A stretch of 64,000 nt of DNA from an uncultured Chthonomonadaceae bacterium. Lineage in GTDB: Bacteria > Armatimonadota > Chthonomonadetes > Chthonomonadales > Chthonomonadaceae. Numbering within the stretch: position 1 is the stretch's first letter; every line of letters begins with the position of its first letter. This document shows positions 21,251 to 60,041 of this stretch, one piece after another. The stretch lies in NCBI GenBank assembly GCA_963835065.1, contig CAWIEK010000037.1:128001-192000 (forward strand), written 5' to 3'. The notes under the pieces are model-generated. The model saw only the letters and a list, made by a program, of their open reading frames with translations, searched no databases and was not told the DNA's origin. A program made the position numbers and the translations under genes.

Positions 21251-21264
21251 CCCCGGAAACGCTT

Positions 21265-28179: not shown

Positions 28180-28196
28180 GATGATGCCTCCCCAAA

Positions 28197-28489: not shown

Positions 28490-29680
28490 ATGACAGCGCA
28501 ACCTTTGAACATACAAATCTACTTACGCGGCGGCGGCACATTGGAAGCATTGGCGCGCGATCTGGCAATCCGCCATGCCCGGCATCCGGCTTACGCCAAT
28601 CTGGTACTGCTGAAATACGATCAGATTAACAGCCCGATGGACAACCCTGTTGTGCGGGAGTGCCGGGGGCTGATTCTGGATGAAGCGGACGATTGGCGCA
28701 TTGTTGCCCGCGCTTACGAGAAATTCTTCAACTACGGCGAACCGAACGCGCCCGTTATAGATTGGACAACCGCCCGCATACAGGAGAAAGTAGACGGAAC
28801 CCTGTGCATTTTCTACCATTACGACAGCAAGTGGCATGTTGCGACAACGGGAACGCCGGACGCCGGGGGCAGGGTGCATAACGGCGAGCGCATATTCCGT
28901 GACCTGATCTGGGAAACGGCAAGGCAGTACGAAATGCAGTTGCTTTCGCCCCAACATTGCTATCTGTTTGAACTCACAAGCCCCTACAATCGCGTGGTCG
29001 TGCCGCATGAGCAGCCGGGCTTGACCCTGCTGGGCATACGGCAAACGGATAATGGCGCATGGGTCCCGCTGAAGCAGGCCCATTCGTATATCAGCGGTTC
29101 CGTGCCTGTCGTGCAGGAGTTCGCGTTCAACTCGCTTGCCGCCGTGCTGTCTTCGTTGGAAAACATCAACCCTCTGGAGCAGGAGGGGTACGTGGTTGTG
29201 GATGGCGCGGGCAATCGCGTCAAGGTGAAGCATCCGCGTTATGTCGCGCTGCATCTGCTCAAGGAATCGTTCAATTTGCGGGCGTATGTGGAGGTATTGC
29301 GGGCAGGCGAAACTCCCGAACTGCTCACGTACTTTCCCGAAATCGGGGCAGAGTACGCGCCGGTTCGCGCTGCTTACGAAACCCTCGCGATGGAAATTGA
29401 CGCCGATTACAGCCGTCTGCGTTCGCTTGACACGCAGAAAGAGTTTGCACAGGCCGCGCTCAAAACACGCTGCTCCGCCGCGCTGTTCGCAATCCGGGCC
29501 GGCGATTGCCGCGATGCCCGCGATGGATTATTTAAGCATGTGGAGCAGCCGTTGGTAAGCCTCTTCCCAGCGTTCGGCGTTTGCGGCAGGCGTGTAGGTT
29601 TCCAGCGTGAAAGAATTGCGCACGATTTGCCGCGCCTGCTCCAGCCCATTCAGCAGGCCGACGCCGATGGCCTGCATTAG
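28490..29680 (+). CDS. T4 Rnl1-like RNA ligase, copy 1, chimeric C-terminus
   Basis: About 345 N-terminal residues match copy 2, then the frame reads into antisense rhaB copy 2. Confidence 0.7.
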   Translation: MTAQPLNIQIYLRGGGTLEALARDLAIRHARHPAYANLVLLKYDQINSPMDNPVVRECRGLILDEADDWRIVARAYEKFFNYGEPNAPVIDWTTARIQEKVDGTLCIFYHYDSKWHVATTGTPDAGGRVHNGERIFRDLIWETARQYEMQLLSPQHCYLFELTSPYNRVVVPHEQPGLTLLGIRQTDNGAWVPLKQAHSYISGSVPVVQEFAFNSLAAVLSSLENINPLEQEGYVVVDGAGNRVKVKHPRYVALHLLKESFNLRAYVEVLRAGETPELLTYFPEIGAEYAPVRAAYETLAMEIDADYSRLRSLDTQKEFAQAALKTRCSAALFAIRAGDCRDARDGLFKHVEQPLVSLFPAFGVCGRRVGFQRERIAHDLPRLLQPIQQADADGLH

Positions 29681-31009
29681 TATATTGCCGATAGCGGTTG
29701 CTTCCACCGGGCCGGCAATTACGGTTCGGCGCGTGGCATCGGCGGTGAGTTGGCACAGCAGTTTGTTTTGGGTTCCGCCGCCCACGACGTGAATGGTGTC
29801 AATGCCGCGCCCGCGTACCTGCTCCAATCCCTCCACTACAAACCGGTATTTCAGCGCGAGGCTTTCCAGGCAGCAGCGGATGATTGCGCCCTCGTCCTGT
29901 GGAACCGCCTGCCCCGCGCGTTGGCAGAAGGCGCGGATTTCCGCCGCCATGTCGTCGGGCGCGAGGAACGCGGGATCGTCCGGGTCAATCAATGGCCCGA
30001 ATGGAGGAGCCTGTTCCGCCAGTGTGGTCAAGGTAGCATAGCTGTGATCGTGTCCGTATCGGGCAAACGAGCGGCGGCACTCCTGCACGAGCCACAATCC
30101 CATCACGTTTTTCAGGACGCGAACCGTGTTACGCGCGCCGCCTTCATTGGTAAAGTTGAATTTCGCGGTTTGTTCGGAGATAAGCGGGACAGGCGCTTCG
30201 ATGCCGACAAGCGACCATGTGCCGCTGCTGATGTAAGCGTAATCGGGAGTGGACGCGGGCACGGCGACAACCGCGCTGCCCGTATCGTGGGTGGCGGGCG
30301 CGATCACTTGCAGGTTGGTGGCTCCTGTTTCTGCCGCAATATCCCGGCGAAGTGTGCCAAGCCGCGTTCCCGCGGGTACGATGTCGGTGAAAATAGCGCG
30401 GGGCAGTTGAAACGCTCCAATCAAATCCTCCGCCCATGCGTGGTTATGCGGGTCGGCGAGTTGCGTCGAGGTGGCGTTGCTCCATTCCGTCACTTTTACG
30501 CCCGTCAGCCAGAAGTTGAGCAGGTCGGGCATGAGCAGCAAGGTGCGGGCGTTTGCCAGCAGGGGCGAACCCGCTTTTTGCAGCGACAGCAGTTGATATA
30601 GCGTATTGAACTGCAAAAACTGTATTCCCGTGCGCTTGTAAATCGCTTCACGCGGCACGGTTTGAAACGCGGCTTCCATCATGCCGTCATTGGCGTGGTC
30701 GCGGTAATGGCGTGGGTTCCCCAACAGCACATCGTCTTTGCCGAGCAGTCCGAAATCCACTGCCCACGTATCAATGCCCATCCCCCTAAAATCGGTTCCA
30801 CAGGACTGCGCGGCCAATCGTAATCCTGTCTTGATTTCCGTAAACAGCCGCAGCGCGTCCCAATACAGCGTATCGAGTACGCGCGTCCCGCCCGTCGCAA
30901 AACGGTGCGCGTCCTGCAAGCGCAGTTTGTCGTCCTCAAAAAAGCCCGTTACCGCCCGCCCGCTTTCCGCGCCCAGATCAAACGCCAGAAACTTGGCTTC
31001 CATTGCCAC
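29528..31009 (-). CDS. rhaB: Rhamnulokinase, copy 2
   Basis: Identical to copy 1 except I/M near the C-terminus. Confidence 0.92.
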   Translation of the reverse strand: MAMEAKFLAFDLGAESGRAVTGFFEDDKLRLQDAHRFATGGTRVLDTLYWDALRLFTEIKTGLRLAAQSCGTDFRGMGIDTWAVDFGLLGKDDVLLGNPRHYRDHANDGMMEAAFQTVPREAIYKRTGIQFLQFNTLYQLLSLQKAGSPLLANARTLLLMPDLLNFWLTGVKVTEWSNATSTQLADPHNHAWAEDLIGAFQLPRAIFTDIVPAGTRLGTLRRDIAAETGATNLQVIAPATHDTGSAVVAVPASTPDYAYISSGTWSLVGIEAPVPLISEQTAKFNFTNEGGARNTVRVLKNVMGLWLVQECRRSFARYGHDHSYATLTTLAEQAPPFGPLIDPDDPAFLAPDDMAAEIRAFCQRAGQAVPQDEGAIIRCCLESLALKYRFVVEGLEQVRGRGIDTIHVVGGGTQNKLLCQLTADATRRTVIAGPVEATAIGNILMQAIGVGLLNGLEQARQIVRNSFTLETYTPAANAERWEEAYQRLLHMLK

Positions 31010-31319
31010 GATGATGCCTCCCCAAAAAGGATGAAGGATGAAGGATGAAGGATGAAGAATGAAGACAATGCCTGTCTCTGTCTTAATCAATAAACATGGT
31101 TATGACAGAAGAAGCCATTGTCCTGAGTGCAATTCTTCATCCTTCATCCTTCATCCTTCATCCTTTTCGGGGCGGGAAAATCCTGCTTGTTTCTTATCGT
31201 GCAATTTTACGCCGATGAGGGCTGTCAACAGGAATGGACACCTTGCCGCTAGTACGCGGCAGAGCCAATAATAAATCATCCGAGAGGATGAATGGGAAGA
31301 AGCAGGAGAAAGAGGCAAC

Positions 31320-32465
31320 ATGACAGCGCAACCTTTGAACATACAAATCTACTTACGCGGCGGCGGCACATTGGAAGCATTGGCGCGCGATCTGGCAATC
31401 CGCCATGCCCGGCATCCGGCTTACGCCAATCTGGTACTGCTGAAATACGATCAGATTAACAGCCCGATGGACAACCCTGTTGTGCGGGAGTGCCGGGGGC
31501 TGATTCTGGATGAAGCGGACGATTGGCGCATTGTTGCCCGCGCTTACGAGAAATTCTTCAACTACGGCGAACCGAACGCGCCCGTTATAGATTGGACAAC
31601 CGCCCGCATACAGGAGAAAGTAGACGGAACCCTGTGCATTTTCTACCATTACGACAGCAAGTGGCATGTTGCGACAACGGGAACGCCGGACGCCGGGGGC
31701 AGGGTGCATAACGGCGAGCGCATATTCCGTGACCTGATCTGGGAAACGGCAAGGCAGTACGAAATGCAGTTGCTTTCGCCCCAACATTGCTATCTGTTTG
31801 AACTCACAAGCCCCTACAATCGCGTGGTCGTGCCGCATGAGCAGCCGGGCTTGACCCTGCTGGGCATACGGCAAACGGATAATGGCGCATGGGTCCCGCT
31901 GGAGCAGGCCCATTCGTATATCAGCGGTTCCGTGCCTGTCGTGCAGGAGTTCGCGTTCAACTCGCTTGCCGCCGTGCTGTCTTCGTTGGAAAACATCAAC
32001 CCTCTGGAGCAGGAGGGGTACGTGGTTGTGGATGGCGCGGGCAATCGCGTCAAGGTGAAGCATCCGCGTTATGTCGCGCTGCATCTGCTCAAGGAATCGT
32101 TCAATTTGCGGGCGTATGTGGAGGTATTGCGGGCAGGCGAAACTCCCGAACTGCTCACGTACTTTCCCGAAATCGGGGCAGAGTATGCGCCGGTTCGCGC
32201 CGCTTACGAAACCCTCGCGATGGAAATTGACGCCGATTACAGCCGTCTGCGCTCGCTTGACACGCAGAAAGAGTTCGCACAGGCCGCGCTCAAAACACGC
32301 TGCTCCGCCGCGCTGTTCGCAATCCGGGCCGGCGATTGCCGCGATGCCCGCGACTACCTGAGCCGACGCGCCACCGTTGCTTCCGTAATGCGACTGCTTG
32401 GGTTAAAGGAGGAACCACAGGCGGCAAACAAAAACGCCATAGAAGGGGAATTCAGTTCGTCTTAA
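31320..32465 (+). CDS. T4 Rnl1/RnlA-family ATP-dependent RNA ligase, intact copy
   Basis: ECRGLI, KFFNYGE, motif I EKVDGT, FELTSPYNRVV, motif IV EGYVV, motif V RVKVK. Confidence 0.85.
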   Translation: MTAQPLNIQIYLRGGGTLEALARDLAIRHARHPAYANLVLLKYDQINSPMDNPVVRECRGLILDEADDWRIVARAYEKFFNYGEPNAPVIDWTTARIQEKVDGTLCIFYHYDSKWHVATTGTPDAGGRVHNGERIFRDLIWETARQYEMQLLSPQHCYLFELTSPYNRVVVPHEQPGLTLLGIRQTDNGAWVPLEQAHSYISGSVPVVQEFAFNSLAAVLSSLENINPLEQEGYVVVDGAGNRVKVKHPRYVALHLLKESFNLRAYVEVLRAGETPELLTYFPEIGAEYAPVRAAYETLAMEIDADYSRLRSLDTQKEFAQAALKTRCSAALFAIRAGDCRDARDYLSRRATVASVMRLLGLKEEPQAANKNAIEGEFSSS

Positions 32466-32975: not shown

Positions 32976-34229
32976 TTAAAATAGACGTGGCACGGGTTCG
33001 TCATTCTCAGGTAGATTGCCCTCCTTCTTATCTAATGATTTTTCAGCGTCGGTCAGTTCCAATCCGATTGCAACCTTCACATTACGTACAGCCTGCTTGA
33101 CAGGAAAGTTAGTAGTGTTGATTTTCAAGGTTTCACGGTTGACAATATTGTCTAACCACAGGTCGGATCTTCTGGTGAAATCCAACTCCCCTAGTTTCTG
33201 AATTAGTTCCTCTCGTTCGCTCCCTTCCTTAGTGTTAATGTAGTAGCCAGTTCTGCTAATCACCTGCAACCCTGTTGCCGTTAGATGAACGTTATCCTCA
33301 CGGAGTTTTGGTATGGAATTCTCCTCGGGGCCGGGCTTCGCATTGCTGTCAGCGATTAACTGCCACACGCTGTTGTATGTAGTAAACCGCTGGTAAAAAT
33401 CTATGATGTTGCGAACGTACTGATCGCCTGCTGGACCATCAAGACGTTCGGCAACGTACCGTGCTAAAGCATCACGGTTTTGTATGGAATTTCCTAACAA
33501 AATTTCAGCAGCACAATAGCGAATCTGGTTCAGAGTGAACAGCTTGATTGAGGTTTTGCCTATGCTCTGGGCCATTTCATCAATTCTGCCTCTGAAAAAG
33601 TCGACTTCCTTAGTGATGCGCTGTATCAACGGAAACAGCTTACTACGAGTGTCGAACGCAGCCAACATTGACTTGGGAATCTCTTTAGTCTGTGCGCAGT
33701 CGGCAAAATCCTGATGAACTTTAGTAATTTCTTCTTCCAAAACTAAAGTAATGCTGATGGCATCATCTTGCAATTCTGGCTTTGCTTCAATGGCTCGTTC
33801 GATTGCTTTGATGCGGTGTTGTCCATCGGTGACATAGAATTGGTAGCCACGAGGCACAATAACAATGACGTTCACCACAGGTGCTTGCGTTTTAGTGGTG
33901 AAACACTTCAAGGATTTGTCTACGTTGAGTGTAACTGGTGGAAGAATGTAGTGTTCTTCACTTATCAAGTATTCGCTGATACTTTTAACGTGGTCTGGAA
34001 TGAGAGGCCGGTTACGCCTTTCAGAGATACTCACAGTGGACTTGGAAGGAGACTCGATGCGTACCAACCGAATAACTTCGTGCATTGGCAGGCTAGTACT
34101 TATCATTCGTCGTCCTCCTTGTTGGTACAAGGCTCCGGGAATTGCAATGCCTCTCGTAGCCATTGCTTCATCGTTGGCTGCTTGTTGGGCGTCTGCAAAG
34201 GTGTTACAGTACTGAATGTTATCTTCCAT
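32976..34229 (-). CDS. DGQHR domain (DndB-like, ParB superfamily) protein
   Basis: QQGGR, NRPLIPDH, YILPPVTLN, VTDGQHR, QDFAD. GAGGAGG SD before the ATG at 34229. Confidence 0.88.
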   Translation of the reverse strand: MEDNIQYCNTFADAQQAANDEAMATRGIAIPGALYQQGGRRMISTSLPMHEVIRLVRIESPSKSTVSISERRNRPLIPDHVKSISEYLISEEHYILPPVTLNVDKSLKCFTTKTQAPVVNVIVIVPRGYQFYVTDGQHRIKAIERAIEAKPELQDDAISITLVLEEEITKVHQDFADCAQTKEIPKSMLAAFDTRSKLFPLIQRITKEVDFFRGRIDEMAQSIGKTSIKLFTLNQIRYCAAEILLGNSIQNRDALARYVAERLDGPAGDQYVRNIIDFYQRFTTYNSVWQLIADSNAKPGPEENSIPKLREDNVHLTATGLQVISRTGYYINTKEGSEREELIQKLGELDFTRRSDLWLDNIVNRETLKINTTNFPVKQAVRNVKVAIGLELTDAEKSLDKKEGNLPENDEPVPRLF

Positions 34230-34257
34230 GTTCGTGCCTCCTCGTTTGAATGAGAAC

Positions 34258-34287
34258 ATTATACATCTGAATGGAAGTAGCTGTCAA
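34258..34287 (-). promoter_or_regulatory. Consensus sigma70 promoter of the DGQHR gene
   Basis: TTGACA-N18-TATAAT on the minus strand. Confidence 0.8.
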
Positions 34288-35259: not shown

Positions 35260-35340
35260 AATTTGCTCGGTTGAATGTGGGTTGATTGTATTGTACCCGA
35301 TTTGTCGGCGTTGCTTTTGAATCTGCCTGCCGTTTACCCC

Positions 35341-35369
35341 TTGACGGAACGCCCCGAAAATTGTATACT
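35341..35369 (+). promoter_or_regulatory. Sigma70 promoter of mutS (likely leaderless transcript)
   Basis: TTGACG-N17-TATACT, 7 nt before the ATG at 35377. Confidence 0.7.
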
Positions 35370-35376
35370 CGTTTGC

Positions 35377-38189
35377 ATGTCAGACACCACTTCCAACAAT
35401 CAACCAATCTCAAATGACGCGGCTGCCGTGCCCGTCAACACTACGCCTGCGCCTGCGAATGTTGCCGCGCCGGGTGTTAATCCCGCGCCCGGAGTGACGC
35501 CGCCCAAGCGCCCGGCTCCCGAATCGGTTCCCAAAGATTATGAGGGCAGTACGCCGCTGATGAAGCAGTATTTCGCCACCTGTCAGGAGCATCCCGGCAT
35601 CATTTTGCTGATGCGCGTGGGTGACTTTTACGAAGCGTATGGCGAAGCGGCGGAAATCATTGCCCGCGACCTGAACATCACGCTGACCGGGCGCGAGGAT
35701 GGCGGCGTCCGCGTCCCGATGGCGGGCGTCCCGCACCACGCGACGGAGCGTTACGTCGCCCGCCTGATCCACAAGGGGCGGCGTATCGCCATCATGGATC
35801 AGGTGGAAGACCCCAAGTACGCCAAAGGGCTGGTCAAGCGCAAGGTGACGCGGGTTGTCACGCCGGGAACCGTGCTTGAAGACAACATGCTCGACGCTAA
35901 AAGCAACAACTACCTTGTGGCGGCGGTTGTCGGCGACCCGGTTGCGGGCGTGGGCATTGTGGACGTGTCTACGGGCGAGTTTTTGACAACCGAAATCAGC
36001 GGCGAACGGCGCGTAGAATCGCTTGCTGGACGAAATCATGCGTTTGGAACCGGCGGAAATTCTGGTTTCCCCGGACGCCGATCCCAAATCTTGTGGACGA
36101 AATCCGGGCGTCGTGTTCGGGAACGGTCACGGTTGTGGAAAGGCAGGAAGGCAAACGGCAAAAGGCGGAAGGCAATAGCCGCGAGATGCTGCTGTCCCAT
36201 TTCGGAACCCAATCCCTGCGCGGTTTCGGCTGCGAGGAGTACACAGCGGGACTGGACGCCTGCGCCCTTGTTCTCCGCTACCTGCGCGATACGCAGGTGA
36301 ACGCCCTGCCGCATATCCGCAGTCTCAGCACCTATTCCGCCCGCGAGTTTATGATGCTGGACGGCCCCGCCCGGCGGCATCTGGAACTGACGCAGGCGAT
36401 GGGCGAAGGCGGCAGGCAGCGCACTCTGCTTGCCAGTCTGGACGAAACCCTGACGCCGATGGGCGGGCGCTTGCTGCGCCGTTGGCTGGAAGAGCCGCTC
36501 CTGGACGTGACCCGCATCACGCGGCGTCTGGATGCTGTCGAGGAACTCAGTCGTGACGTGATCAGGCGGGGCGATGTGCGCGAACTGTTGCGCGGCATGG
36601 GCGACATCGAGCGCCTTGTCAGCCGCGCGGCTGCGGGCATGGCGAACGGGCGCGACTTGATTGCCCTGAAAAACGCCCTATTGCGCCTGCCCGATCTGGC
36701 CGACCTGCTGGAAGGCGTCCAATCCGAAAAACTCAGCGAACTGGCGCACCGCCTGTCCTGCCCGCCCGACGTGGCGCAGCGCATTGCCGAGGCGATAACC
36801 GATGATCCGCCCGCCGGATTGAGCGAAGGCGGCCTGATACGTCCGGGCTATAATGCGGTGTTGGACAAAATTCAGGAAGAAAGCGCGAACGCCAAAGCGT
36901 TTATCGCCAATCTGGAAACTTCCGAGCGACAGCGAACGGGCATTAACAGTCTTAAAGTGGGCTACAATGCCGTGTTCGGCTATTACATCGAGGTTACAAA
37001 AACCCATTTAAGCAAAGTGCCACTCAACTACACGCGCAAGCAGACCATTTCTACCGGAGAACGCTATATCACGGAAGAATTGGTAAATCAGGCAAAACTC
37101 GTATCTAAGGCAGAAGAACAAAGCGTAGAATTGGAATACGAGTTGTTTCTGGCCGTCCGGGAGCGGGTTGCGGAAGCGGCGACGGACGTGCTTGCCGTTG
37201 CCCGCGCCGTCGCCGAATTGGACGTGTTTACCGGTTTTGCCGAAACCGCCGTGCGCCATCATTATGTACGGCCTCTTGTGGATGATGAAGACCGGATTGA
37301 AATCGCGGGCGGGCGGCATCCCGTGATTGAGCGCATCGGCAGCGTCCTGGGCATCGGCGGCGAGTACATTCCCAACGACTGCAAACTGGACGATGATTGC
37401 CGCATGGTCATTATCACCGGCCCGAACATGAGCGGCAAATCCTCCTACCTGCGCCAAATCGCCCTGATCGTCCTGCTCGCGCAAATCGGCAGTTTCGTGC
37501 CTGCGGACGGCGCGACGATTGGCGTGGTAGACCGCATTTTTACCCGCGTCGGCGCCCATGACGAACTGGCAAGCGGGCAGTCTACGTTCATGGTGGAAAT
37601 GAACGAAACCGCCAGCATCCTCAACAACGCCACCAGCCGCAGCCTTGTCGTATTGGACGAAATCGGGCGCGGAACCAGCACGTATGACGGCCTTTCCATT
37701 GCGTGGGCGGTTGCCGAACACCTGACGCGCATCGGCTGCAAAACCCTGTTCGCCACGCATTACCACCACCTCAACGAACTGGCGAAGCACTTCCCAACCG
37801 TGCATAACTACCGCGTCGCCGTGAAGGAGCAGGGCGACAGCATCATCTGGCTGCGCAAACTGGTTCCCGGTGGCACGGACCGGAGTTACGGCATACAGGT
37901 GGCGCGAATGGCGGGCGTCCCGCAGGAAGTGGTCGAACGCGCCAAAGAAGTGCTGAAAGGTTTGGAGCGAGGCAGCGCGGGCGCAACCCGCGACATCATC
38001 GGGCAAACGGGCGAAAACGGAACCGGTATCGCGCCCCGCAAGCAGAAGGTGCAAATGACGCTCTTCGAGGCCGAAAAGCACCCCGTTTTGGAGGAACTGG
38101 AAACGCTGGACGTAACTTCCCTCACGCCCGTGGAAGCCCTGATGAAACTCGACGAACTCAAGCGCCGCCTCAAGCGCCAATCGCAATAA
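35377..38189 (+). CDS. mutS: DNA mismatch repair protein MutS, frameshifts near 36022 and 36088
   Basis: TPLMKQY, RVGDFYE, TGPNMSGKS, QSTFMVEM, DEIGRGT, FATHY, SYGIQVA. Confidence 0.95.
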
Positions 38190-38206: not shown

Positions 38207-38509
38207 ATGACAATTATGCTGGAATTGACACCGGAGGTAGAGGCACAACTGACTCGACAAGCGCGTCAGGAAGGTCTCTTAGTTAAGGAGTATGTGCAGC
38301 GCGCGGTGGAACAACTGGTAAAACCAAAGGAGTTTGACATAAATGCTTTTCTTGCGCTCCCGCGTGACGAGCAGGATTACATTCTGGCAACTGCCGCCGA
38401 AGACGCCGCGCCCCTGTATGCCGCAGACCTCGCGTTGCCTGTAACCGAACGGGAACTAACCGCGTTTACGGCGCTGGATGGAGAACCTTTTCATGACGAC
38501 AACTTCTGA
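38207..38509 (+). CDS. Putative antitoxin (RHH-like N-terminus)
   Basis: MTIMLELTPEVEAQLTRQA, acidic tail, overlaps the toxin start. Confidence 0.7.
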   Translation: MTIMLELTPEVEAQLTRQARQEGLLVKEYVQRAVEQLVKPKEFDINAFLALPRDEQDYILATAAEDAAPLYAADLALPVTERELTAFTALDGEPFHDDNF

Positions 38510-38846
38510 TCCCGTTCGTGGCGAGATATGGCGCGTCAACTTGGAACCCACACAGGGCGATGAAATGGGTAAGACACGTCCTATTGTTGTTCTGAGCGGC
38601 AAAAGCATTGGGCGTCTTGCTTTACGGATTGTGGTTCCTTTGACGGATTGGAAAGATCGTTACGCCGCCTATGTCTGGATGACACGGCTGGAACCGGACG
38701 CCACCAATAATCTGACAAAAACATCAGCGGCAGATGCGTTTCAAGTGCGTTCCGTATCTGTATCCCGTTTTGTGGAGTACGTCGGCATTCTGCCGGATGA
38801 GCGATTGGACCGAGTCTGGAAGTCGCTGAGTATATGTACGCGCTGA
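38493..38846 (+). CDS. mazF: PemK/MazF family endoribonuclease toxin
   Basis: RGEIWRVNLEPTQGDEMGKTRPIVVLS, VVPLT, QVRSVS. Confidence 0.88.
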   Translation: MTTTSDPVRGEIWRVNLEPTQGDEMGKTRPIVVLSGKSIGRLALRIVVPLTDWKDRYAAYVWMTRLEPDATNNLTKTSAADAFQVRSVSVSRFVEYVGILPDERLDRVWKSLSICTR

Positions 38847-40824: not shown

Positions 40825-40941
40825 GTTCGTTACTCCTGTGAAAGTGTGTGTCGAGTGTGTATCGAAAGAAAAGAGACAAGCGTACAGCAAGTATTATAGT
40901 ATACCCGGCGATTGGAAGTCAAGAGGGGAAGGAACAGTGAG

Positions 40942-41020
40942 GAACGATGAATGATGAACGATGAGTGATGAGTGAGAATTTGTATTCCATTCATCATTCA
41001 TCACTCAGCACTCATCACTC
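40942..41020. repeat. Inverted heptamer arrays (TGATGAR-like)
   Basis: Arms at about 40942-40976 and 40987-41020, overlapping the fbp stop codon. Confidence 0.8.
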
Positions 41021-42964
41021 CAAAATCATTCCTTCCTCGTAGGCATAAATCAGCCGCTCAAGTTGGGTGATCGCGCTTCTTAGCCGATCCCCGTCTTCTG
41101 TATCGCCGATATGGTGAACTGTCGGATACTCGCGCAGCGTGGTGATTTTAGGAATCATGTCCGCGCCCGTTGTGATAGACTCTTCTACGGAGGTGAAGTG
41201 CGAATGTTCCGCCAGCGAAATGCGTTCCGCGTCTAAAATCAGCGTGTAGCCGTGGTCGCCATACGCTTCGGAAAACGCGCCGTCAATGGTCACGGCATTG
41301 CCGCCCCGCTTGACAGGCTGCTCCCCTTCGTCAATCTTGACGGGAACATGCCCGTTGACGATTAAGCCGTCCTCGCTCACGCCGAACTCGCGCAAGATTT
41401 TGCGGCAAAAGTCGGCGTCGTGTATCAATTGGAAGTAGGCGTTTTTGGTTTCTTTGTGGGTGGCTTTGTCGGCGACAAAGTATGTCTCGAAGGTCGCCAT
41501 TCTATCCTTGCCGAACAGGGGTGAGAGCGGCCCCGCCCACAGGTACCACATCCAATCGGCGTCGGCGTCGCGCCGTTCCGCGCCCTTGCGAAAGGCGCGG
41601 CGTATCAGGGAAGCGAGGGCGTCGAACAAATCCCTGCCTTTCCGTTCCACGCCGTCTACGGACAAGGAGAGAAATTCGCCGTTTTCATCGCAGGGGACGC
41701 AGGCATGGAAAATGAGGGTGTCGTCCCGCCGCTGCCACATCGCGCCGTGCTGCACCATCCAGCGCATCTGCTCCCACAAGGCTTGGCTTGCCGTAAACGA
41801 CTGCTGCAGCCGCTTCATGCAGGCGTCTTCTTCGGGGGAGAGGGCATACGGGTCGGCAGGGTCAAGGGTGGGGAAGTGGGTGTCGAGAAGCGGATAGGTT
41901 TGTCCGTCAATTTCCACCGTTCCCGCCTCATGGTGGATGCGGTGCAGCAGGTTGCGGTGTTCCCAGTTCCATTCCGGGTGCTTGCGGCTGCTGCTGCCTT
42001 CCAGTTTGAAGTTCAGAATCGCGGTGGCTTTTTGCATCCGGGCTAATGTCAAATCGTCGCGCAGGCCGGAACTTTTGGCATGGAATCGTTCGGCGGGATC
42101 GTCACCATAAACGGTGCGGGCAAGATGTTCCAGGGGGTCAAGGAAGATGCCGTACCCCTCTTCCAGTTGCTCCAGGCGTTGGTAGCGCAGGGACAGGCGC
42201 AGCACGGTGGCAATGGCCGTCGGTTCGCCAAGACACGCCCCCATCCATGAGGTATCGTGATTGCCCCACGTCACCGTCACATGCGGCTGCCGCATCAGGT
42301 AATCAATCACTTTGTCAATGCGCAAGCCCCGGTCGCCCATATCCCCGGCAACAAATAACTCGCCCACGCTTAGGTTACGGACAAGTCGGCTTGCCGCCCG
42401 CACAACCTCAAAGACAGCCCCCGCGTCAACGAAAACTTTAATCATCGCGTTGATGTAATCCGGGCTGCGCAGGGTGGCGGGTGCGTCCAGCAGTTCGGCG
42501 AACAACTCCCGGTAAGGCGTGGGAAACAGGGCGTAAATATGGCCCCGCCGATAGACCGGAGCCAGCCGACGCACACAGTCAAACTGCATCCGCAATGTCT
42601 GCTGCGCCCACCCCCCTTGCGCCTCTTGTGTTTGCAAGGCGTCTCGAAGATGCTGCATGGCTTCCTGCGGATAATAAAGCAGGGCAAGAAAGGCGGCCAA
42701 CTCGTTCGGGGCAAGCCGGCTGCCGAACAGTTCTTCTACGAGCGGGCGGAGCCTGCCGGAAGCGTTGTTAATGACGTGCCGCAGCTTGCGGTAATCGCCG
42801 TGAATGTCACTGATGACATGCGTGGCGGGCTTGGGCAGGCCGAGCATGGCAGCGCAGGCAGCGATTTCGCTTCGCGCCACTTCCACATTCGGGTACTGCC
42901 GCGCCAATGCCCGCAAGCCGACCAATTCGCCCGGTGTAATGACTCGTTCTTCCCACTCTGTCAT
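41015..42964 (-). CDS. fbp: Fructose-1,6-bisphosphatase class III
   Basis: LPK..H.ISDIHG, GDMGDRG, WGNHD, LEEGYGI, SPLFGKD.MATFE, NGHVPVK. Confidence 0.9.
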   Translation of the reverse strand: MTEWEERVITPGELVGLRALARQYPNVEVARSEIAACAAMLGLPKPATHVISDIHGDYRKLRHVINNASGRLRPLVEELFGSRLAPNELAAFLALLYYPQEAMQHLRDALQTQEAQGGWAQQTLRMQFDCVRRLAPVYRRGHIYALFPTPYRELFAELLDAPATLRSPDYINAMIKVFVDAGAVFEVVRAASRLVRNLSVGELFVAGDMGDRGLRIDKVIDYLMRQPHVTVTWGNHDTSWMGACLGEPTAIATVLRLSLRYQRLEQLEEGYGIFLDPLEHLARTVYGDDPAERFHAKSSGLRDDLTLARMQKATAILNFKLEGSSSRKHPEWNWEHRNLLHRIHHEAGTVEIDGQTYPLLDTHFPTLDPADPYALSPEEDACMKRLQQSFTASQALWEQMRWMVQHGAMWQRRDDTLIFHACVPCDENGEFLSLSVDGVERKGRDLFDALASLIRRAFRKGAERRDADADWMWYLWAGPLSPLFGKDRMATFETYFVADKATHKETKNAYFQLIHDADFCRKILREFGVSEDGLIVNGHVPVKIDEGEQPVKRGGNAVTIDGAFSEAYGDHGYTLILDAERISLAEHSHFTSVEESITTGADMIPKITTLREYPTVHHIGDTEDGDRLRSAITQLERLIYAYEEGMILE

Positions 42965-47018: not shown

Positions 47019-48680
47019 ATGACGACGTGGAAATCAGGCCGTGAGGCTTTGAAACGATTCTGGTGGGCGGCAACTTTGGCGTGTGTGCCAATCTTTTTGT
47101 GTGTCATGCGCTGCCATGCGGACGATCTGCTTGGCGGATTGGCGCGTCCGCAGGAGGGGCGCAGTATGCGGGCGTCGTCCACATTCCGGGAGGGGCGCGA
47201 CGGCAAATACGATCCCCGCGCCGACCCCAAAGGCGACCGGGACGAAAAAAGCAATTGGGACAATTTTCGAAGTTGCGCCGGGTGAAACCCATGTCCTTCT
47301 GGACGCCAAAGGGCCGGGGCTGATTACGCATATCTGGATGACGTTTCTCGGCCCGGAAGCGCAGGAGTGGGCTAAAAACGGCTCGGCCAACCATCAGGAA
47401 ATGCTGCTGCGCATCTATTGGGACGGCAATTCCCGCCCCGGCGTGGAAGCGCCTGTGGGTGACTTTTTCGCCAACTGCTTCGGCAGGCGCAGCGAAGTCA
47501 TCAGCCTGCCGGTTCAGGTGGCGGACGGCGACGCTTACAACTGCTTCTGGCAAATGCCGTTTCGCAAGTCCGCCCGTATCGAGATCGTCAACCAGAGCGA
47601 CAAGCCTATCAGCCTGCTGTACTACAACATTGACTGGATACAAAAGAAAAGCCTGCCCCGCGACACGCCCTACTTCTACGCGCAGTACCGTCAGGAGTAC
47701 CCCGCGCAAAACGGCAAGGATTATGTTCTGCTGGACACGCAGGGCAAGGGGCATTATGTCGGCACGGTCTTGGCGGTGCGGACGCGCAGCCCCGCGTGGT
47801 TCGGGGAAGGGGACGAGAAGATTTACATAGATGGCGAGGCAAACCGTCTATCTGGGGAACGGGAACCGAAGATTACTTTTTGTCGGCATGGGGATTGAAG
47901 AAGACCAGTACGCCGTTCTTTGGCGTCCCGTATTTCGACCAGTGGGGGATTGTGGGCGGGCATACGAGCGCGTACCGCTGGCATCTCAACGACCCGATTG
48001 TGTTCCAAAAGGGCATCAAAGTGACGCTGGAGCATTGGGGCTGGATGTCGCCGGACGAGAACCCCGACTATAAAACCACAAGCTGGAACGAGCGCGAGGA
48101 CGATTATTCCAGCGTCGCCTTCTGGTATCAGACCGGGCAGCCGACCTTTGACGCCCGCGCCCCTCACGCCCGCGAGCGCAAATTGCCGTCCCTCGAACGA
48201 ATCCTTGTTTACGCCCGCGATTACGCCGACGCTTCCCATCACGGACCGGGCGAAACCGTGAAGCAGGCGCTTGGCTTTTACGACGGCCCGCAACTGCTGC
48301 TCAAGCCGGAACAACCCAAAGACGGCTGGCTGGAAATTCCGTTCGACGTAACGAAAAAAGAGCCGCTGCGCTTACTGCTCAACCTGACCCACTCCTACGA
48401 CTTCGGCAAGTATCAGGCAACCCTCAACGGCGTGAAAGTGGGCGGCGTGATAGACCTGTACAGCGCGGCCATCAGCAATGAAGAAGCGCATCTGCTGGAC
48501 TTCTGGCCGGAACCGGGGCATTATACGCTGCGTCTGGAGTGCGTCGGCAAAAACGCGCTGTCAACCGGCTATTATCTCGGCATAGAGTCGGTGCGCCTGC
48601 GGGAACGCCGCCCCCGCGTGACGGAATACGCCCACGACAAAGCCAAAGACTGGCGGCAAAAGCCGGAACTGTACCGATAA
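47019..48680 (+). CDS. DUF2961/GH172 family protein, frameshifts near 47268 and 47843
   Basis: GPGLITHIW, LRIYWDG, PVGDFF, MPFRKSA, WFGEGDE, GTGTEDYF, SSVAFWYQ. Confidence 0.85.
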
Positions 48681-53020: not shown

Positions 53021-53146
53021 TGGCCGGGTACTGAAATTACCCGGCAGGAAAGTACAAGCGTCTTTCAGACGCGGCATTCTTAATGCAGAGAATCGCGTCT
53101 GAAAGACGCTTTTTTTGTTGCAGGGGTACTGAAAGTCACCCGGCAA
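53021..53146. repeat. Palindromic element related to family C
   Basis: gccgggtactgaaattacccggcaggaaagtacaagcgtctttcagacgc ... gcgtctgaaagacgct. Confidence 0.75.
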
Positions 53147-53185
53147 GCAGACGCCGCAGTGTACCGGCAAAAATAATCCCGAAAA

Positions 53186-53428
53186 AACAGAAAAAAAGAG
53201 CAAAATAACCCGAAAACAGCGAACCTTTTGCCCCACATACCCTGTCTATAGTGTACATGCGTCTATTACTTAGCAAAGGAGGTGCAAGCTTATGTTTCAC
53301 CCCTCCCGTTCGCCCTGACGCTTACGAGGTCACGACGCCTCATCTCAATACAATCTGACACAACGAGACATCGGGCTGGAAGCGCTGTATTGCCAAGATT
53401 TCGACGATGCCTCTACATACCCTTTTTT
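53186..53428 (+). ncRNA. Conserved leader/ncRNA-like element, copy 2, 5' of the vWA gene
   Basis: Aligns with 9212-9514. Micro-ORF 53292-53318, core 53349-53420, T6 at 53423-53428. Confidence 0.6.
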
Positions 53429-53525: not shown

Positions 53526-54200
53526 ATGGTCGCCCCGACTGCCTTAGAAGACGCCGTTGAGTTTGCCGAAAATCCCGAACCCCGCTGCCCCTGCGTCCTG
53601 CTGCTGGACACGTCCGGCTCCATGAACGGCGCTCCGCTGCAAGCCCTCAATGCCGGGCTGCAATCCTTCAAAACGGAAATCGTCAAGGACAATCTCGCCT
53701 CGCGCCGCGTGGAAATCGCCGTCGTCACCTTCAACAACGAGATCGCCGTCGAGCAGGATTTTGTCACCGCCGACCAGTTCGCGCCGCCCACGCTGACGGC
53801 GCGGGGCATGACCCACATGGGCGCGGCCATCAACAAGGCGCTGGATATGGTGCAGGCGCGTAAAACGCAGTACCGCGCCAATGGCGTCGCGTACTACCGC
53901 CCCTGGGTGTTCCTGATTACGGACGGCGCTCCGCAGGGCGAACCCGAAGATTTGGTCACGCAGGCCGCGCAGCGCATCAAGGCGGACGAAGCCGCCAAGC
54001 GCGTCGCCTTTTTCGCGGTGGGCGTGGAAAACGCGGACATGGATCGCCTCGCCCAACTCGCCGTCCGCGCCCCCGTCAAGTTGAAAGGGCTGAACTTCGT
54101 CGAGATGTTCGTGTGGCTGTCCGCCAGTATGCAGAAAATCTCGCAGTCACAGGTAGACGAGCAAGTGGCGCTTCCCCCGCCCGGATGGGGAACCGTTTAG
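53526..54200 (+). CDS. terY: vWA domain protein, TerY/YegL family
   Basis: ENPEPRCPCVLLLDTSGSM (MIDAS), YYRPWVFLITDG, FVWLSAS. Confidence 0.9.
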   Translation: MVAPTALEDAVEFAENPEPRCPCVLLLDTSGSMNGAPLQALNAGLQSFKTEIVKDNLASRRVEIAVVTFNNEIAVEQDFVTADQFAPPTLTARGMTHMGAAINKALDMVQARKTQYRANGVAYYRPWVFLITDGAPQGEPEDLVTQAAQRIKADEAAKRVAFFAVGVENADMDRLAQLAVRAPVKLKGLNFVEMFVWLSASMQKISQSQVDEQVALPPPGWGTV

Positions 54201-54364: not shown

Positions 54365-55110
54365 GGCGCGTTGTGGCGGCATCCGTAACGGGCGTGAGCC
54401 ATGAAAAAGCCAATCTGCCGTGTCAGGACGCCCACGCCTTTCGGCAGTTGTCCAACTCGGTTTTGATTTGCGCGGTTGCGGATGGAGCCGGGTCTGCCGC
54501 CCTCTCGGAAATCGGTTCGCGCATCGCCGTACAGGTGAGCGTGGAAACGCTGGAACGCCGTATCCAGAGCGCTTCGGCAGCCGGCGCAAACATCGAAAGC
54601 GCGGATTTGCAGGCCGCTTTACGCGCTGTTCAGCAGGCATTGGAAACCGAAGCCGAAACGCGCCGCGAACCCCTGCGCGAATTTGCCACCACGCTGCTGC
54701 TCGTGGTTGTATATTCGGATCAAATCGCCGCGCTGCAAGTGGGGGATGGCGCGGTTGTGGCGCAGAACGCGGCAAAAGAATTAGTTGCCATCACCGTTCC
54801 GCCGGACGCCGAGTACGCCAACGCGACCACTTTTGTCACCTCGCCGGACGCCCTCGAATCCGCGCAAATCGTCATACAAACCCTGCCCTTAACCGGCCTT
54901 GCCATGTTTTCGGACGGCCTACAGCGTTTGGCGCTGAAACTGCCCGAAGGCACACCCCACGCGCCCTTTTTTACGCCCCTGTTCCGCTTCGCCCACCAAA
55001 TGGAAGACGCGCAGCAGGGCACACAACAATTAACGGCCTTCCTGCGCTCACCCCGCATCACCGAACGCGCCGATGATGATTTGACGTTGCTTTTAGCAGT
55101 AAGGCATTAG
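54307..55110 (+). CDS. PP2C-like phosphatase, YegK/PphC family
   Basis: SVTGVSH, PCQDA, AVADGAGSA, ATTLL, VGDG, SDGLQ, DDDLTL. Confidence 0.9.
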   Translation: MNSSNSQPAIENRKSKIENWRVVAASVTGVSHEKANLPCQDAHAFRQLSNSVLICAVADGAGSAALSEIGSRIAVQVSVETLERRIQSASAAGANIESADLQAALRAVQQALETEAETRREPLREFATTLLLVVVYSDQIAALQVGDGAVVAQNAAKELVAITVPPDAEYANATTFVTSPDALESAQIVIQTLPLTGLAMFSDGLQRLALKLPEGTPHAPFFTPLFRFAHQMEDAQQGTQQLTAFLRSPRITERADDDLTLLLAVRH

Positions 55111-55226
55111 GCATCAGGCATTAGATATTAGTGACTGTCCAGTAAATTAAAAAATGGCGCAGAAACGCTGCCCGGTTCATCTAATACCATCCTAATGCCT
55201 AATGCCTAATGCCTAATATCTAACCC
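55101..55226. repeat. Inverted heptamer arrays (AGGCATT)n ... (AATGCCT)n
   Basis: Lies between the phosphatase and kinase genes. Confidence 0.85.
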
Positions 55227-55227
55227 T

Positions 55228-57677
55228 ATGCGTTACCTGCGCCAATCCAACAATCAGCGCGTGATCGTGCCCGACGCGGCTCCTTTGGGAGTGGGCGGCG
55301 AGGCGAAGGTTTTTGCCGCGTCTGCCGATGGACGGCTGGCCGCCAAAATCTATCATCGGCCTACGGACGCGCAGGCGCGTAAACTGGCTGCCATGCTTGC
55401 CAACCCGCCCGACGATCCGATGTCGGCGCAGGAGCATATTTCCATTGCGTGGCCGCTGGACTCTATTGCGCAAGATGTACGGCGATCAGGGGTTTGCGGG
55501 GTTTCTGATGCCGCGTGTGTCCGGGATGCGCCCCCTGTTCAACGTGTACAACCCCGTCACCCGGCGGCAGGAACTTCCGCTTTTCAATTACCTCTACCTG
55601 CACCGCGCCGCCCGCAACGTGAGCAGCGCGGTTCGCGCCCTGCACAATCGCGGCTACGTTATCGGCGACATCAACGAGTCGAACCTGCTTGTCACGGAAA
55701 CCGCGCTCGTCACCCTGGTGGATACCGATTCGTTTCAGGTGCGCGACCCGCAGACCGGAACCGTGTACCGCTGTCCCGTCGGCAAGCCGGAATTTACGCC
55801 CCCGGAGCATCAGGGCAAGAACTTTCGGCAAGTGACTGCGTACGGAAGCAAGTGACCGCTTCGGCCTTGCCGTGCTGATTTTCCAGCTGCTGATGGAGGG
55901 CGCGCACCCGTTTTCCGGCGTGTATCAGGGCGAGGACGACCCGCCACCCTACGAAACCCGCATCCAAAACGGGCATTACACGTATGGAACGCGCCCGACG
56001 CCGTTCACGCCCATGCCGCTTGCCCCGCCCATAGACATGCTGCATCCCACCTTACGCGCCCTGTTCACGCGCTGTTTTGAGGAGGGACACGCCAACCCCG
56101 ACCTGCGCCCTGACGCCGCAACGTGGGCAAACGCGCTGATGCAGGCCGAAGAAGCCCTGATAACATGCGCCCTCAACGCGCAGCACCGTTACGGCAAGCA
56201 TCTCGCGGCCTGCCCCTGGTGCGAGCGCAAAGAGAAATTGGGCGGGCGCGACCCTTTCCCGCTCCAATCCGCCCAACCCTACGTCCGCCCCGGACGCGAC
56301 ATCCGCCGCATCGAGCCACAGCCGGTTTACCACGCTTCCGGTTCTATAACCTTAACCACGCCGCGCCACACGCCAACCGTAATACGCCTATCGCCGCTTG
56401 CCCCGGCCACCAGCCACCAGCCACCAGCCACCAACCTCCCCAACTGGCCCCTCGCGCCAAGCGTTCACACCTCTGCCGCCGTTGGAAATGGAAGTTTCGT
56501 GTTGCCGGCCATTCCGCCGTATCCCGCCGCAACATGGACGGCGCTTAGTTTTCTGATTTTAGCGCTGATGGTTCCCGGCTTTCATCTGTTCTTCGGCGTT
56601 TGCACATTGATTGCCGCCCTGATCGGCTGGTACAGCGGCAAGGCCGGGCGCTGGCTGGCCCTGAGCGCGGGGATTACAGGCAGCATCGTGTCGTTGATTA
56701 TTCTGGCGGGCGCGGCAAACCGCTCGTTCGTGGCGGCGGATTTGCGCACCCTTGAGGAAAAGGGACCCGTCCGCTCCGTGACGTTTTCGCCGGATAGCCG
56801 AACGGTTGCGGTCGGCACGGAACGGAATGAAGATCAGCGCTTGATCAACGGCGAAGCGGCTCTGTTCGATGTGCAGACGGGCGACATCACGCGCCGCTTT
56901 GTGCAGAATATGGGTCCTTCCAACATCGCGTCCGTTGCCTTTTCTCCCGATGGGCGCTTGTTCGCGGCGGGAACAAGCGCGGTGCTGGAACCGGGAACGG
57001 TGCGCCTGTGGGATACGCGCTCGTGGCGATTGCGGCAGGTGTTTACGGGTTTCAAAAGCGATGTGGACAGCGTGGCCTTTACGCCTGACAGCCTGCGCAT
57101 GGTTACAGGCAGCCGCGACAAAACCGTAGAAATATGGGATGTGGAAACGGGCGCGGCCTTGCGCCTTCTGGACGCGCCGGGGGAAGTGTACGGAATTGCC
57201 GTGTCGCCGGATGGCGCATTAATCGCGGCGGGCAGTGGCTCATCGGGGTCGGGCGAACCGGGGCGCGTAAGCGTATGGGACGCGCGCACGGGAACCCTGC
57301 TCTGGTCGCGCAAGGGACACAGCGAGCGCTGCCAGTCCGTCGCCTTTTCTCCCGACGGCAACCGCCTTGCCAGCGCCGGCAATGACAACACCATTCGGCT
57401 TTGGAACCCGCGCACGGGCAATCTGGAGAAAATGCTGGAAGCAAAGGGTATTCTAATGGTCAACGGCGTGGCGTTTTCCCCTGACGGCTCGAAAGTGGCG
57501 TGTGGCGGCAGCGACGGAGCCGCCCGCCTGTGGGACATTGCCAGTTCCAGCATCGTGCATACGTTTCCCGGAGCGGAAGCCAACGTGGAAACCATCGCCT
57601 TCGCGCCCGACGGCAAAATGCTGGCCTGCGGCGACCGCAACGGCGTCATCAACTTGTGGCGCATACATGATAAATGA
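55228..57677 (+). CDS. YegI-like Ser/Thr kinase with TM segments and a WD40 propeller; frameshifts near 55470 and 55850
   Basis: GVGGEA, AAKIYH, IAWP, GFLMP, IGDINESN, DTDSFQ, EFTPPE, CPWC, 2-3 TM helices, about 7 WD40 repeats. Confidence 0.85.
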
Positions 57678-57809
57678 GGATGTTCAGGTGTTCAGGTGTT
57701 CGGGTATTCAGGAGTTTTGACACTTGCAACCATCAGTGCTAAACTACCGCAACCTTTTATCTGTCAGCCCAAACACCCAAACACCTGAACACCTGAACAC
57801 CTGAACACC
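57678..57809. repeat. Inverted octamer arrays enclosing a promoter
   Basis: (GGTGTTCA)n ... (TGAACACC)n with TTGACA-N17-TAAACT at 57717-57745 in the spacer. Confidence 0.85.
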
Positions 57810-57834
57810 GTTGCATCCAAAGGAGCCTGAAACC

Positions 57835-58662: not shown

Positions 58663-60041
58663 GGATGGGGAACGCGAATGAAGCGGGAAACACGAATAAC
58701 GCCGCGATTACGAACAAAGCGGAAACGTCTCGCCCCCTCATGCCGCGCCTGGGACGTACCGTAATCGCGCTTGGGTTTGTCAGCCTGCTGACGGATATGT
58801 CCAGCGAAATGGCGTACACGCAGGTTCCCATTTTTCTGACGGGCGTATTGGGCGCGTCCGCCGTTTCCGTCGGCCTGATCGAAGGCGTGGCGGAAAGCAC
58901 GGCCAGCCTGCTGCGCCTCGCGTCCGGCTACTGGTCCGACAAAACCGGAAAACGCAAGCCGCTCACCGTACTTGGCTACAGCTTCGGAGCCATCAGTAAG
59001 CCGCTCATGGCACTTGCCTACGTATGGCCGCTCGTTCTGTTACTGCGCTTCGTGGATCGGTTCGGCAAAGGGTTGCGCACCGCCCCCCGTGACGCCCTGA
59101 TTACGGAAACCACGCCCAAAGAACTGCGCGGGCGCGCGTTCGGCCTGCATCGCGCCATGGACACAACGGGCGCGGTACTCGGCCCCCTGTTCGGCCTTGC
59201 TTTTCTCGGCTTCCTCCACCGCTACGCCCACAGCAACGATTTAGCCCACAACCTGCGCCTGCTGTTCGTCTTCGCCGGCATCCCCGGCCTGCTCGCCGTT
59301 CTGACGCTGCTGTTTGCGGTGAAAGAGGAGAAGACAGAAGACAGAAGACAGAAGGCAGAAGGAAATGCTGAACGAGGAATGATGAGTAATGAATTGAATT
59401 CCCATTCATCACTCATCACTCATCACTCATCACCTTCTTCTCCCTCAACCTCCTTCTGGTTCCGCCTGTCCCCAGAGTACCGTCGGTTTCTGCTGGTTAT
59501 TTTCCTGTTCAATTTGGGAAATTCCAGCGATGCGTTTTTGGTGCTGCGGGCGGGAAATTTGGGGTTCACGCCCTCACAGGTTTTATGGCTGTACGCGGCG
59601 TTCAATGTGGTGGAAGCGGTTCTGGGGTATGGCGCGGGTATTCTTTCGGATCGTATCGGGCGGCGTCCGCTGATTATTTCCGGCTATGTGGTTTTCGCGC
59701 TGGTGTATTTAGGCTTCGGACTGGCAAGCAGTAAAACCGCCATTGTTGTTTTGTTTTTGCTGTACGGCCTGTACTACACGCTCACGCAGGGCGTCCAGCG
59801 CGCGTTTGCCGCCGACATGGCCGACCCAAAACAACGCGCTACCCAAATAGGAGCGTACCATACCGTTGTCGGCATCGCCCTGCTGCCCGCCAGCCTGATC
59901 GCCGGAATCCTCTTCGAGCGCAATCCCGCCCTGCCGTTCTTCGTCGGCGCAATCACCGCCTCCTTCAGCGCAGTCTTCTTTGCTGTACAGAGGGGAAGAA
60001 AAGAAGAAAAGAAGAAAAGGAGAAGAGGAGAGGGAAGATAG
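58659..60041 (+). CDS. MFS transporter
   Basis: SLLTDMSSEM, SDKTGKRK, DRFGKGLRTAPRD, multiple TM helices. Confidence 0.92.
   Translation: MRMGNANEAGNTNNAAITNKAETSRPLMPRLGRTVIALGFVSLLTDMSSEMAYTQVPIFLTGVLGASAVSVGLIEGVAESTASLLRLASGYWSDKTGKRKPLTVLGYSFGAISKPLMALAYVWPLVLLLRFVDRFGKGLRTAPRDALITETTPKELRGRAFGLHRAMDTTGAVLGPLFGLAFLGFLHRYAHSNDLAHNLRLLFVFAGIPGLLAVLTLLFAVKEEKTEDRRQKAEGNAERGMMSNELNSHSSLITHHSSPSSPSTSFWFRLSPEYRRFLLVIFLFNLGNSSDAFLVLRAGNLGFTPSQVLWLYAAFNVVEAVLGYGAGILSDRIGRRPLIISGYVVFALVYLGFGLASSKTAIVVLFLLYGLYYTLTQGVQRAFAADMADPKQRATQIGAYHTVVGIALLPASLIAGILFERNPALPFFVGAITASFSAVFFAVQRGRKEEKKKRRRGEGR

Follow-up and report, generated by a model that had tools for sequence, protein, structure and literature searches.

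What is the unannotated sequence that occurs twice, 44 kb apart, in this stretch of DNA, and does it belong to the genes beside it? The window, meaning the whole 64,000-nt stretch analyzed here, holds both copies (9212-9514 and 53186-53428) where the initial annotation had placed them, with the motifs in the order it described and a single substitution between the 72-nt cores at 9435-9506 and 53349-53420. That annotation treated copy 1 as an orphan and copy 2 as the leader of an operon. Copy 2 ends 98 nt before the start of a vWA gene (53526), and copy 1 is, as claimed, followed by no recognizable gene of its own, its neighbor there being a convergent DAHP synthase gene. Features of the two copies are collected in Table 1.

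Table 1. Features of the two copies of the element and of their surroundings in the window.
Feature	Positions	Strand	Evidence
Copy 2, A-rich tract upstream of the promoter, possibly UP-element-like	53169-53220	+	sequence; common to most copies
Copy 2, predicted ECF-type promoter: -35 GAACC 53221-53225, -10 GTCTA 53244-53248, 18 nt between	53221-53248	+	
Copy 2, second GTCTA, ~20 nt past the first; operator or 5′ RNA element possible	53261-53265	+	logo over 141 copies
Copy 2, very strong Shine-Dalgarno GGAGGTG	53278-53284	+	16S-tail pairing energy
Copy 2, minigene MFHPSRSP-stop (CCC TGA)	53292-53318	+	
Copy 2, spacer, fixed at 7 nt; last three positions vary freely	53319-53325	+	
Copy 2, hairpin P1, 5 bp, 6-nt loop	53326-53341	+	
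Copy 2, A/C-rich linker (20-24 nt among copies)	53342-53364	+	
Copy 2, domain II: P2 53365-53373 with 53405-53413; P3; invariant apex GCGCTGYATTGCCA 53382-53395	53365-53413	+	
Copy 2, CATA motif and pyrimidine tail with T6; T-run begins 9 nt past the stem, non-canonical as an intrinsic terminator	53414-53428	+	
vWA (TerY-like) gene, then PP2C and WD40 genes; incidental neighbor of copy 2	53526-54200	+	Pfam, context tally
Copy 1, predicted ECF-type promoter: GAACC 9246-9250, GTCTA 9268-9272, 17 nt between; second GTCTA 9287-9291	9246-9272	+	
Copy 1, optional leader insert with heptamer repeats; missing in copy 2	9300-9361	+	
Copy 1, Shine-Dalgarno 9365-9371 and minigene MFHPSRSP-stop 9380-9406	9365-9406	+	
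Copy 1, hairpin P1 9414-9429; domain II 9451-9499, apex 9468-9481; tail T6 9509-9514	9414-9514	+	
Copy 1, degenerate right terminal inverted repeat of an ISAzo13-type MITE, then TTA	9581-9606	+	

Several other features of the window were recorded alongside the element. At 26696-32465, an FGGY sugar kinase gene (minus strand) and a T4-type RNA ligase gene (plus strand) occur twice in a tandem duplication with a 2830-bp period and 100% identical stretches, which is either a recent duplication or an assembly artifact. Intergenic 7-8-nt tandem repeats in inverted arrangement lie at 3545-3662, 4751-4855, 6933-7021, 15715-15860, 28177-28355, 40929-41034, 55102-55230, 57675-57818, and 59363-59442. 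At 35275-38189, 47083-48680, and 55228-57677, a mutS gene and a DUF2961 gene each extend over two frames and no kinase match lies between the PP2C and WD40 genes, possibly reflecting frameshifts or sequencing errors. The window also encodes a DndB-family protein (32976-34259) and a PemK/MazF-type toxin of a toxin-antitoxin system (38478-38846).

The description "present twice" holds for the window and fails for the genome, because blastn and nhmmer located 162 full-length copies in the 8.0-Mb assembly (G000). Each spans nearly all of the 152-nt model, there are no partial matches at E ≤ 0.01, and about four pairs are parts of duplicated regions. The same-genus genomes G002 and G001 have at least 47 copies and 13 copies, respectively, making the evidence base one genus and three genome assemblies. 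Covariance model R1 matched none of 39 genomes from other genera of the family (86 candidates scored per genome) and none of 150 genomes of the phylum (24 candidates scored per genome). A scan with the seed motif returned 79 matches in metagenome contigs and at least 55 in genome contigs, with 26 of 64 parts scanned; the 79 metagenome matches and 28 genome matches from outside the family were dismissed as chance because their score was limited to the seed motif (best 15.9 bits). A sequence-based look-up added no further genome.

Rfam yielded no matches within the 64-kb window at the gathering score and none at E ≤ 10 on 9200-9650, around copy 1, consistent with the earlier remark that no named RNA family could be recognized. 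ARAGORN found no tRNA or tmRNA genes in the window; the genome's single tmRNA is located elsewhere, and the genome also encodes tRNA-Sec. A published description of the element was not found in the literature searched, which mostly excluded subscription journals. Homologues in the two same-genus genomes and covariation (below), both of which the initial annotation had named as checks, together with the absence from Rfam, bear out its view of a structured RNA. The sequences therefore support a structured RNA without an existing name, confined to one genus so far, and the element is likely a small RNA gene that loads and holds a ribosome.

A link to vWA-PP2C-kinase signaling or defense had been proposed from the position of copy 2, and this did not survive the genome-wide comparison. 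Only 2 of the 162 copies precede a vWA gene, both belong to one duplicated region with 100% identical vWA proteins, and a third vWA homologue has no copy of the element. According to a purpose-made hexamer-based gene caller, 98 copies are followed by an opposite-strand gene, within 200 nt in 81 of them, and 63 by a same-strand gene (161 in all; p 0.007). The same-strand gene begins within 200 nt in 26 of the 63, the products are unrelated, and the neighbors of copies in G001 are unrelated as well. The vWA operon is an incidental neighbor, and the element is not its leader.

What the copies share begins at the promoter. Boxes of the form YGAAMCYTTT and YGTCTAAA are found in 148 of 162 copies, with gaps between GAAMC and GTCTA of 17 (96 copies), 18 (49), or 19 nt (3), and the box cores are mostly 96-100% conserved, compared with 35-79% for the spacer columns between them. 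The boxes of this predicted promoter are presumably an ECF sigma consensus, and the genome has 51 matches to sigma-70 region 4. A second conserved GTCTA lies ~20 nt downstream of the -10 box in a logo of 141 copies. A different promoter-like motif precedes the same core in 11 of 27 further copies from relatives, and a third upstream sequence type does so in five G001 copies.

Outside the element, the promoter motif has only 15 intergenic matches in the genome. Related motifs at C63:47652, C48:65458, C24:17597, C30:9971, and C45:52741 of G000 lie upstream of what we take, from reading the sequence, to be a sigma-70-type gene, an rpoB piece, a gene for a 1713-aa protein, an HNH-type gene, and a small ubiquitin-like gene, all of which are possible members of the same regulon. 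A match upstream of efp was discarded as weak and as sitting before a separate sigma-70-like promoter. One orphan copy consists of promoter and leader without minigene or RNA (L249:230-620, on contig C54 of G000 near 109077), and locus L238 of G002 is the reverse case, with the 3′ half of the element only.

Translation signals are under equally visible constraint. The Shine-Dalgarno sequence pairs with the genome's own 16S tail at a median of -15.3 kcal/mol (160 copies) versus -6.2 kcal/mol for 4339 genes, of which 0.25% attain such strength. An ATG is in frame with the Pro-stop in 155 of 162 copies, and length changes within the minigene are whole codons, giving peptides of 8-11 aa, or up to 16 aa in G001. 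The N-terminal part of the peptide is variable, while its end is R-S-P, R-P-P, R-A-P, R-Q-P, H-P-P, or L-P-P, mostly fitting R-x-P-stop. The last codon before the stop specifies proline in 28/28 and 26/27 copies from relatives; all four proline codons are used across copies, and any of the three stop codons may follow. The spacer from stop to hairpin measures 7 nt in 157 of 162 copies and in 28/28 and 24/27 copies from relatives, which is about the distance at which a ribosome with a stop codon in its A site meets downstream structure. Pro-stop is associated with slow termination, tmRNA tagging, and frameshifting in the portion of the report available (PMC3082878), and RxPP and R/HxPP motifs cause stalling according to the accessible part of a second (PMC10951233). 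By analogy, ribosomes may stall at the R-x-P-stop of the element.

The same features were weighed against two further readings of the minigene. That it belongs to a leader that attenuates the genes behind it, the vWA-PP2C operon for instance, or that it is a site of +1 frameshifting at CCC-UGA yielding a longer peptide, is highly improbable. Some copies have the arrangement that a leader would need, namely the 63 with a same-strand next gene. Pro-stop also closes the TnaC and pheL leaders, and CCC_UGA is prone to shifting, as the available text of PMC3082878 has it; in the element, domain II can be read through in the +1 frame without a stop in 130 of 162 copies. Nevertheless, for 98 copies the next gene is convergent, the products encoded downstream have nothing in common, and no conserved switch fold was seen. 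A +1 frameshift or read-through product is made unlikely by the other proline and stop codons in relatives, where the context is often CCG, CCT, or CCA followed by TAA, by a linker that varies in length by single bases, and by a +1 frame that is closed in 32 of 162 copies.

There is also little probability that the element is a toxic minigene RNA like CreT, draining tRNA-Pro or ribosomes and causing dormancy. The gross layout of strong Shine-Dalgarno, start codon, mini-ORF, and downstream stem-loop is alike, going by the part of the CreT report available (PMC8501985), in which a second conserved domain such as that of the element is not described. However, the element has no rare-codon pair, its proline uses all four codons, CCC is not rare in this genome (39197 of 97864 proline codons), and no antitoxin was seen beside the copies inspected.

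Downstream of the minigene, the fold model comprises stems P1 (5 bp), P2 (9 bp), P3 (5 bp), and P4 (2 bp). In 49 sequences, 94.0% of cells are paired with 14 both-side changes (0/500 shuffles), and in 27 further sequences outside the derivation set, 89.6% are paired with 16 both-side changes (0/500 shuffles), while two pair-count measures among five whole-structure measures fail against shuffles in the latter set (125/500 and 163/500); because the sequences are related, these figures are inflated and are not probabilities. The middle of P2 is frequently open (79-86% paired), and the folding energy of the whole RNA is not better than that of shuffles (z -0.20 and -1.35). Of the pairings first proposed by eye, GAGGT/GCCTC and GAGACATCG/CGATGCCTC are supported across copies, AATCT/AGATT is not conserved, and GGAGG/CCTCC exceeds a predicted probability of 0.5 in 58% of 156 copies. 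The accompanying idea that two GAYGCCTC segments compete was not upheld: the second segment is not conserved, its key position being C in 67 copies, A in 65, and T in 30, and most relatives' copies reading TGTCTC, and the alternative fold is therefore unsupported.

The 14-nt apex of domain II, GCGCTGYATTGCCA, is invariant, being perfect in 162 of 162 copies. Its pairing with 16S rRNA is no better than that of 30 shuffles, and pairing between the apex and TATACAG in the 5′ leader shows no covariation. The linker that separates P1 from domain II is A/C-rich, with single-base length variation. The predicted transcript is 173-259 nt long (5th-95th percentile, 141 copies), with a tail that over 30 nt contains 34% C, 33% T, and 16% G and is not a canonical terminator. 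Nine public runs include part of the stretch. Short contigs of 157-524 nt that match the core occur in six of seven soil or biocrust RNA runs; in two of these, the loose ends include the Shine-Dalgarno or start region, and in RNA run X3 the match is limited to the heptamer repeat. These contigs are from other strains and carry neither strand nor ends, DNA may be present in the libraries, and the matches are a weak hint of expression.

On the observed copy number, anatomy, constraint, MITE association, mosaicism, and spacing, a model can be built to which slightly less than an even chance is given: a stress-induced, stand-alone RNA would load a ribosome, hold it at the Pro-stop, and present domain II to the ribosome or to a partner, with the dose set by copy number. 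Its transcription, sigma factor, stalling, binding, and outcome are all inferred. An ECF sigma factor would fire every copy together, and the very strong Shine-Dalgarno would load a ribosome that translates 8-9 codons, as the constraint on the minigene suggests. Slow termination at R-x-P-stop, by analogy with Pro-stop and RxPP, would make the ribosome dwell with P1 at the mRNA entry channel, 7 nt past the stop. The 20-24-nt linker would then present domain II, the invariant apex of which would bind the ribosome or a protein. Ribosomes or the apex-bound partner would thus be captured in a dose-dependent way, which would account for the amplified copy number. The copies would have spread as cargo between ISAzo13-type MITE ends and been mixed by recombination, as is seen in part. 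Promoter boxes, reading frame, RNA fold, and spacing have persisted as the ends decayed. Points against the model are that R-x-P-stop differs from the tested RxPP motif, that the L-P-P-stop subfamily has no arginine, and that the genome shows no avoidance of Pro-stop, which is common there (367 of 4532 genes end in proline, 36 in R/H-x-P).

The minigene could instead be a protective device only, with a parked ribosome guarding the RNA against 5′ decay or Rho while domain II acts independently as a sponge for a non-ribosomal protein. Stalled ribosomes can stabilize RNA, and the invariant apex, flexible linker, and pyrimidine-rich tail speak for such a role, as does a PF00006 match at 21238-22560 in the window, which we judge to be Rho-like. 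It is nonetheless considered unlikely, because a spacer of exactly 7 nt and a linker confined to 20-24 nt point to a fixed geometry with the ribosome, beyond the needs of shielding. As to the protein bound, CsrA is encoded, yet the sole GGA of domain II sits in stem P3 and is GAA in 8 of 49 copies, and Ro60 (TROVE, PF05731), the partner of bacterial Y RNA, had no match in this 92% complete genome.

How so many copies arose can be read in part from their surroundings. A 25-bp inverted repeat with TWA flanks delimits 19 short elements (78-108 bp) and two 1361-bp ISAzo13 elements of G000 (C41:162053-163413 and C53:451924-453284; PF07592, E 7e-107). In both 1361-bp elements (the C41 one being L059), the transposase occupies two frames with an overlap at an A-run, suggesting programmed frameshifting. 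Decayed forms of the same ends and flanks occur at some copies, with a degenerate right end behind 39-40 copies, a left end before 24, and both in 10 (controls 0-1 and 3); apparent direct-repeat flanks proved to be MITE right ends. The observation that similarity stops after the T-run is correct between copies 1 and 2, the latter having no visible MITE end, and incorrect for copy 1 by itself, which runs on into a degenerate transposon end (9581-9603) common to ~40 other copies. In one pair of filled and empty paralogous sites, the insertion opens at TAA and the left end, and the right junction is deleted. A match to an IS or MITE end had been named in advance as grounds for rejecting the RNA; a minority of copies do lie inside decayed MITE ends, but the conserved core is their cargo and not the end itself. 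ISAzo13 is the likely vehicle of the element on this sequence evidence, and G001, with its 13 copies, has no ISAzo13 match. DNA-level copying is indicated because the promoter boxes are shared among copies; the genome also contains two reverse transcriptase genes (L258, L259).

Copies turn over in position and exchange sequence. Only 10 of 39 G002 copies examined have a G000 counterpart at a matching site, and these show no greater similarity to that counterpart than to the remaining copies (ranks 10-156 of 162); all four gametes are present at 566 of 741 site pairs. The copies have therefore been mixed by recombination or replaced and are, to judge from their sequences, mosaics. The two flanks of G002 copies often map to different G000 contigs (8 of 39; L012-L015, L025, L232, L240, L243, and L245), and such copies may mark rearrangement breakpoints.

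Recombination among copies can itself maintain likeness, which counts against the ribosome-holding model and raises the question of whether the element is a functionless MITE passenger kept uniform by gene conversion. MITE ends at some copies, ISAzo13 partner elements, the insertion at TAA, restriction to one genus, and the lack of closeness between matching-site copies are all as this would predict. Yet conversion would even out promoter spacer and boxes alike, when in fact they contrast sharply within 30 nt, and conversion alone neither spares boxes while scrambling a spacer nor preserves frames and synonymous codons, the identity of the stop, the length of the spacer, and compensatory pairs. 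Where a right end is present (40 copies), it averages 4.2 mismatches in 25 nt (~17% decay) and the apex is perfect in all 40, and G001 maintains copies without ISAzo13. A passenger is accordingly judged improbable. Intact promoter, frame, and fold, together with the mutual avoidance described below, therefore point to selection on promoter, translation, RNA fold, and position.

Copies avoid one another along the chromosome. Only four gaps shorter than 10 kb occur, versus 22.7 expected from intergenic sites (0/1000 simulations), and on large contigs alone there are 3 versus 18.0 expected. G002 has no gaps below 13 kb versus 3.4 expected (p 0.02, for 46 of 47 listed copies). Five control repeat families, ISAzo13 ends included, are spaced at random. 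Three of the close gaps are in direct and one in inverted orientation, and loss of direct repeats alone is therefore insufficient to explain the spacing. Eight copies lie near contig ends versus 3.4 expected, a possible small assembly effect that involves too few copies to account for the pattern. A 121-bp palindromic repeat family with ~142 sites in the genome, including 9683-9803, 14488-14608, and 53022-53140 of the window, often adjoins the element and has random spacing.

Such spacing, found in G000 and G002, in both orientations, and unlike that of the controls, would suit copies that act in place, as evenly spaced inducible transcription-translation sites that organize the chromosome, insulate regions, or run antisense into the convergent genes that most of them face. 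This too is distinctly unlikely, given the fast positional turnover between G000 and G002 and the absence of strand bias in G000, whether relative to GC skew (77/159) or to local gene direction (84/158), the skew itself being weak there and too weak in G001 for a replication-strand call. In addition, acting in place leaves the invariant apex unexplained, and a small part of the spacing may be an assembly effect at contig ends. For the ribosome-holding model, the corresponding difficulty is that a sponge acting in trans would not by itself explain the even spacing. A bolder form of that model, which is regarded as rather doubtful, would make the element a new bacterial RNA class: ~160 evenly spread genes that respond to one stress signal, each RNA recruiting a ribosome, parking it at a Pro-stop, and clamping it with a folded domain, to give a chromosome-wide, RNA-only system of ribosome storage or translational braking, with its strength set by transposon-driven copy number.

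Should ribosome holding prove true, a slow-growing, uncultured group would have a way of shutting down translation that is based on RNA; even with another function, the element is a transposon-spread cargo then preserved by the host at the four levels of promoter, frame, fold, and position. We know of no bacterial RNA family in which a stand-alone minigene ending in Pro-stop is joined to a hairpin at the distance of ribosome entry and to a second domain that is invariant, nor, to our knowledge, is any RNA family kept intact in ~160 mutually avoiding copies.

Among known systems, CsrB/RsmZ and 6S RNA are stand-alone, dose-dependent small RNAs under alternative regulation, like the proposed element, but are untranslated; compared with these RNAs, the element lacks an Rfam match and repeated GGA loops. 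Attenuators such as TnaC and pheL differ in that the element has no fixed same-strand downstream gene or pathway and no conserved terminator or antiterminator folds, its T-run not directly following a stem. The arrest peptides TnaC, pheL, YbeL, and ApdA/ApdP, to the extent covered by the accessible parts of two reports (PMC3082878, PMC10951233), resemble it in the C-terminal proline before the stop, the arginine or histidine two residues earlier in most copies, and the variable N-terminus. In contrast to the RAPP/RxPP peptides as described there, the element has a stop rather than a second proline in the A site, encodes 8-9 residues, has no fixed downstream gene, and carries a hairpin at a fixed distance. 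CreT of the H. hispanica and H. hubeiense CreTA systems is likewise a small RNA that acts by translation, as the available portion of PMC8501985 presents it, and is set apart from the element by its tandem rare codons and antitoxin, and by the Pro-stop end, second domain, and ~160 dispersed copies of the latter.

As for mobile elements, only 10 of 162 copies retain both ends of an ISAzo13-derived MITE, and nearly all the ends present at copies are degenerate. Neisseria Correia elements are said to be comparable MITE-borne, dispersed intergenic repeats that carry a promoter. Coxiella QMITE1 and QMITE2 are similar in being dispersed 150-500-bp intergenic repeats with many copies, a promoter, and a transposase acting in trans, according to the part of the report available (PMC5896051). 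Compared with the QMITE and Correia repeats, as far as that text characterizes them, the element has mostly lost its ends and kept its cargo intact, and combines an ECF-type promoter and a constrained minigene with mutual avoidance of its copies; it departs on a defining point from each of its closest known counterparts.
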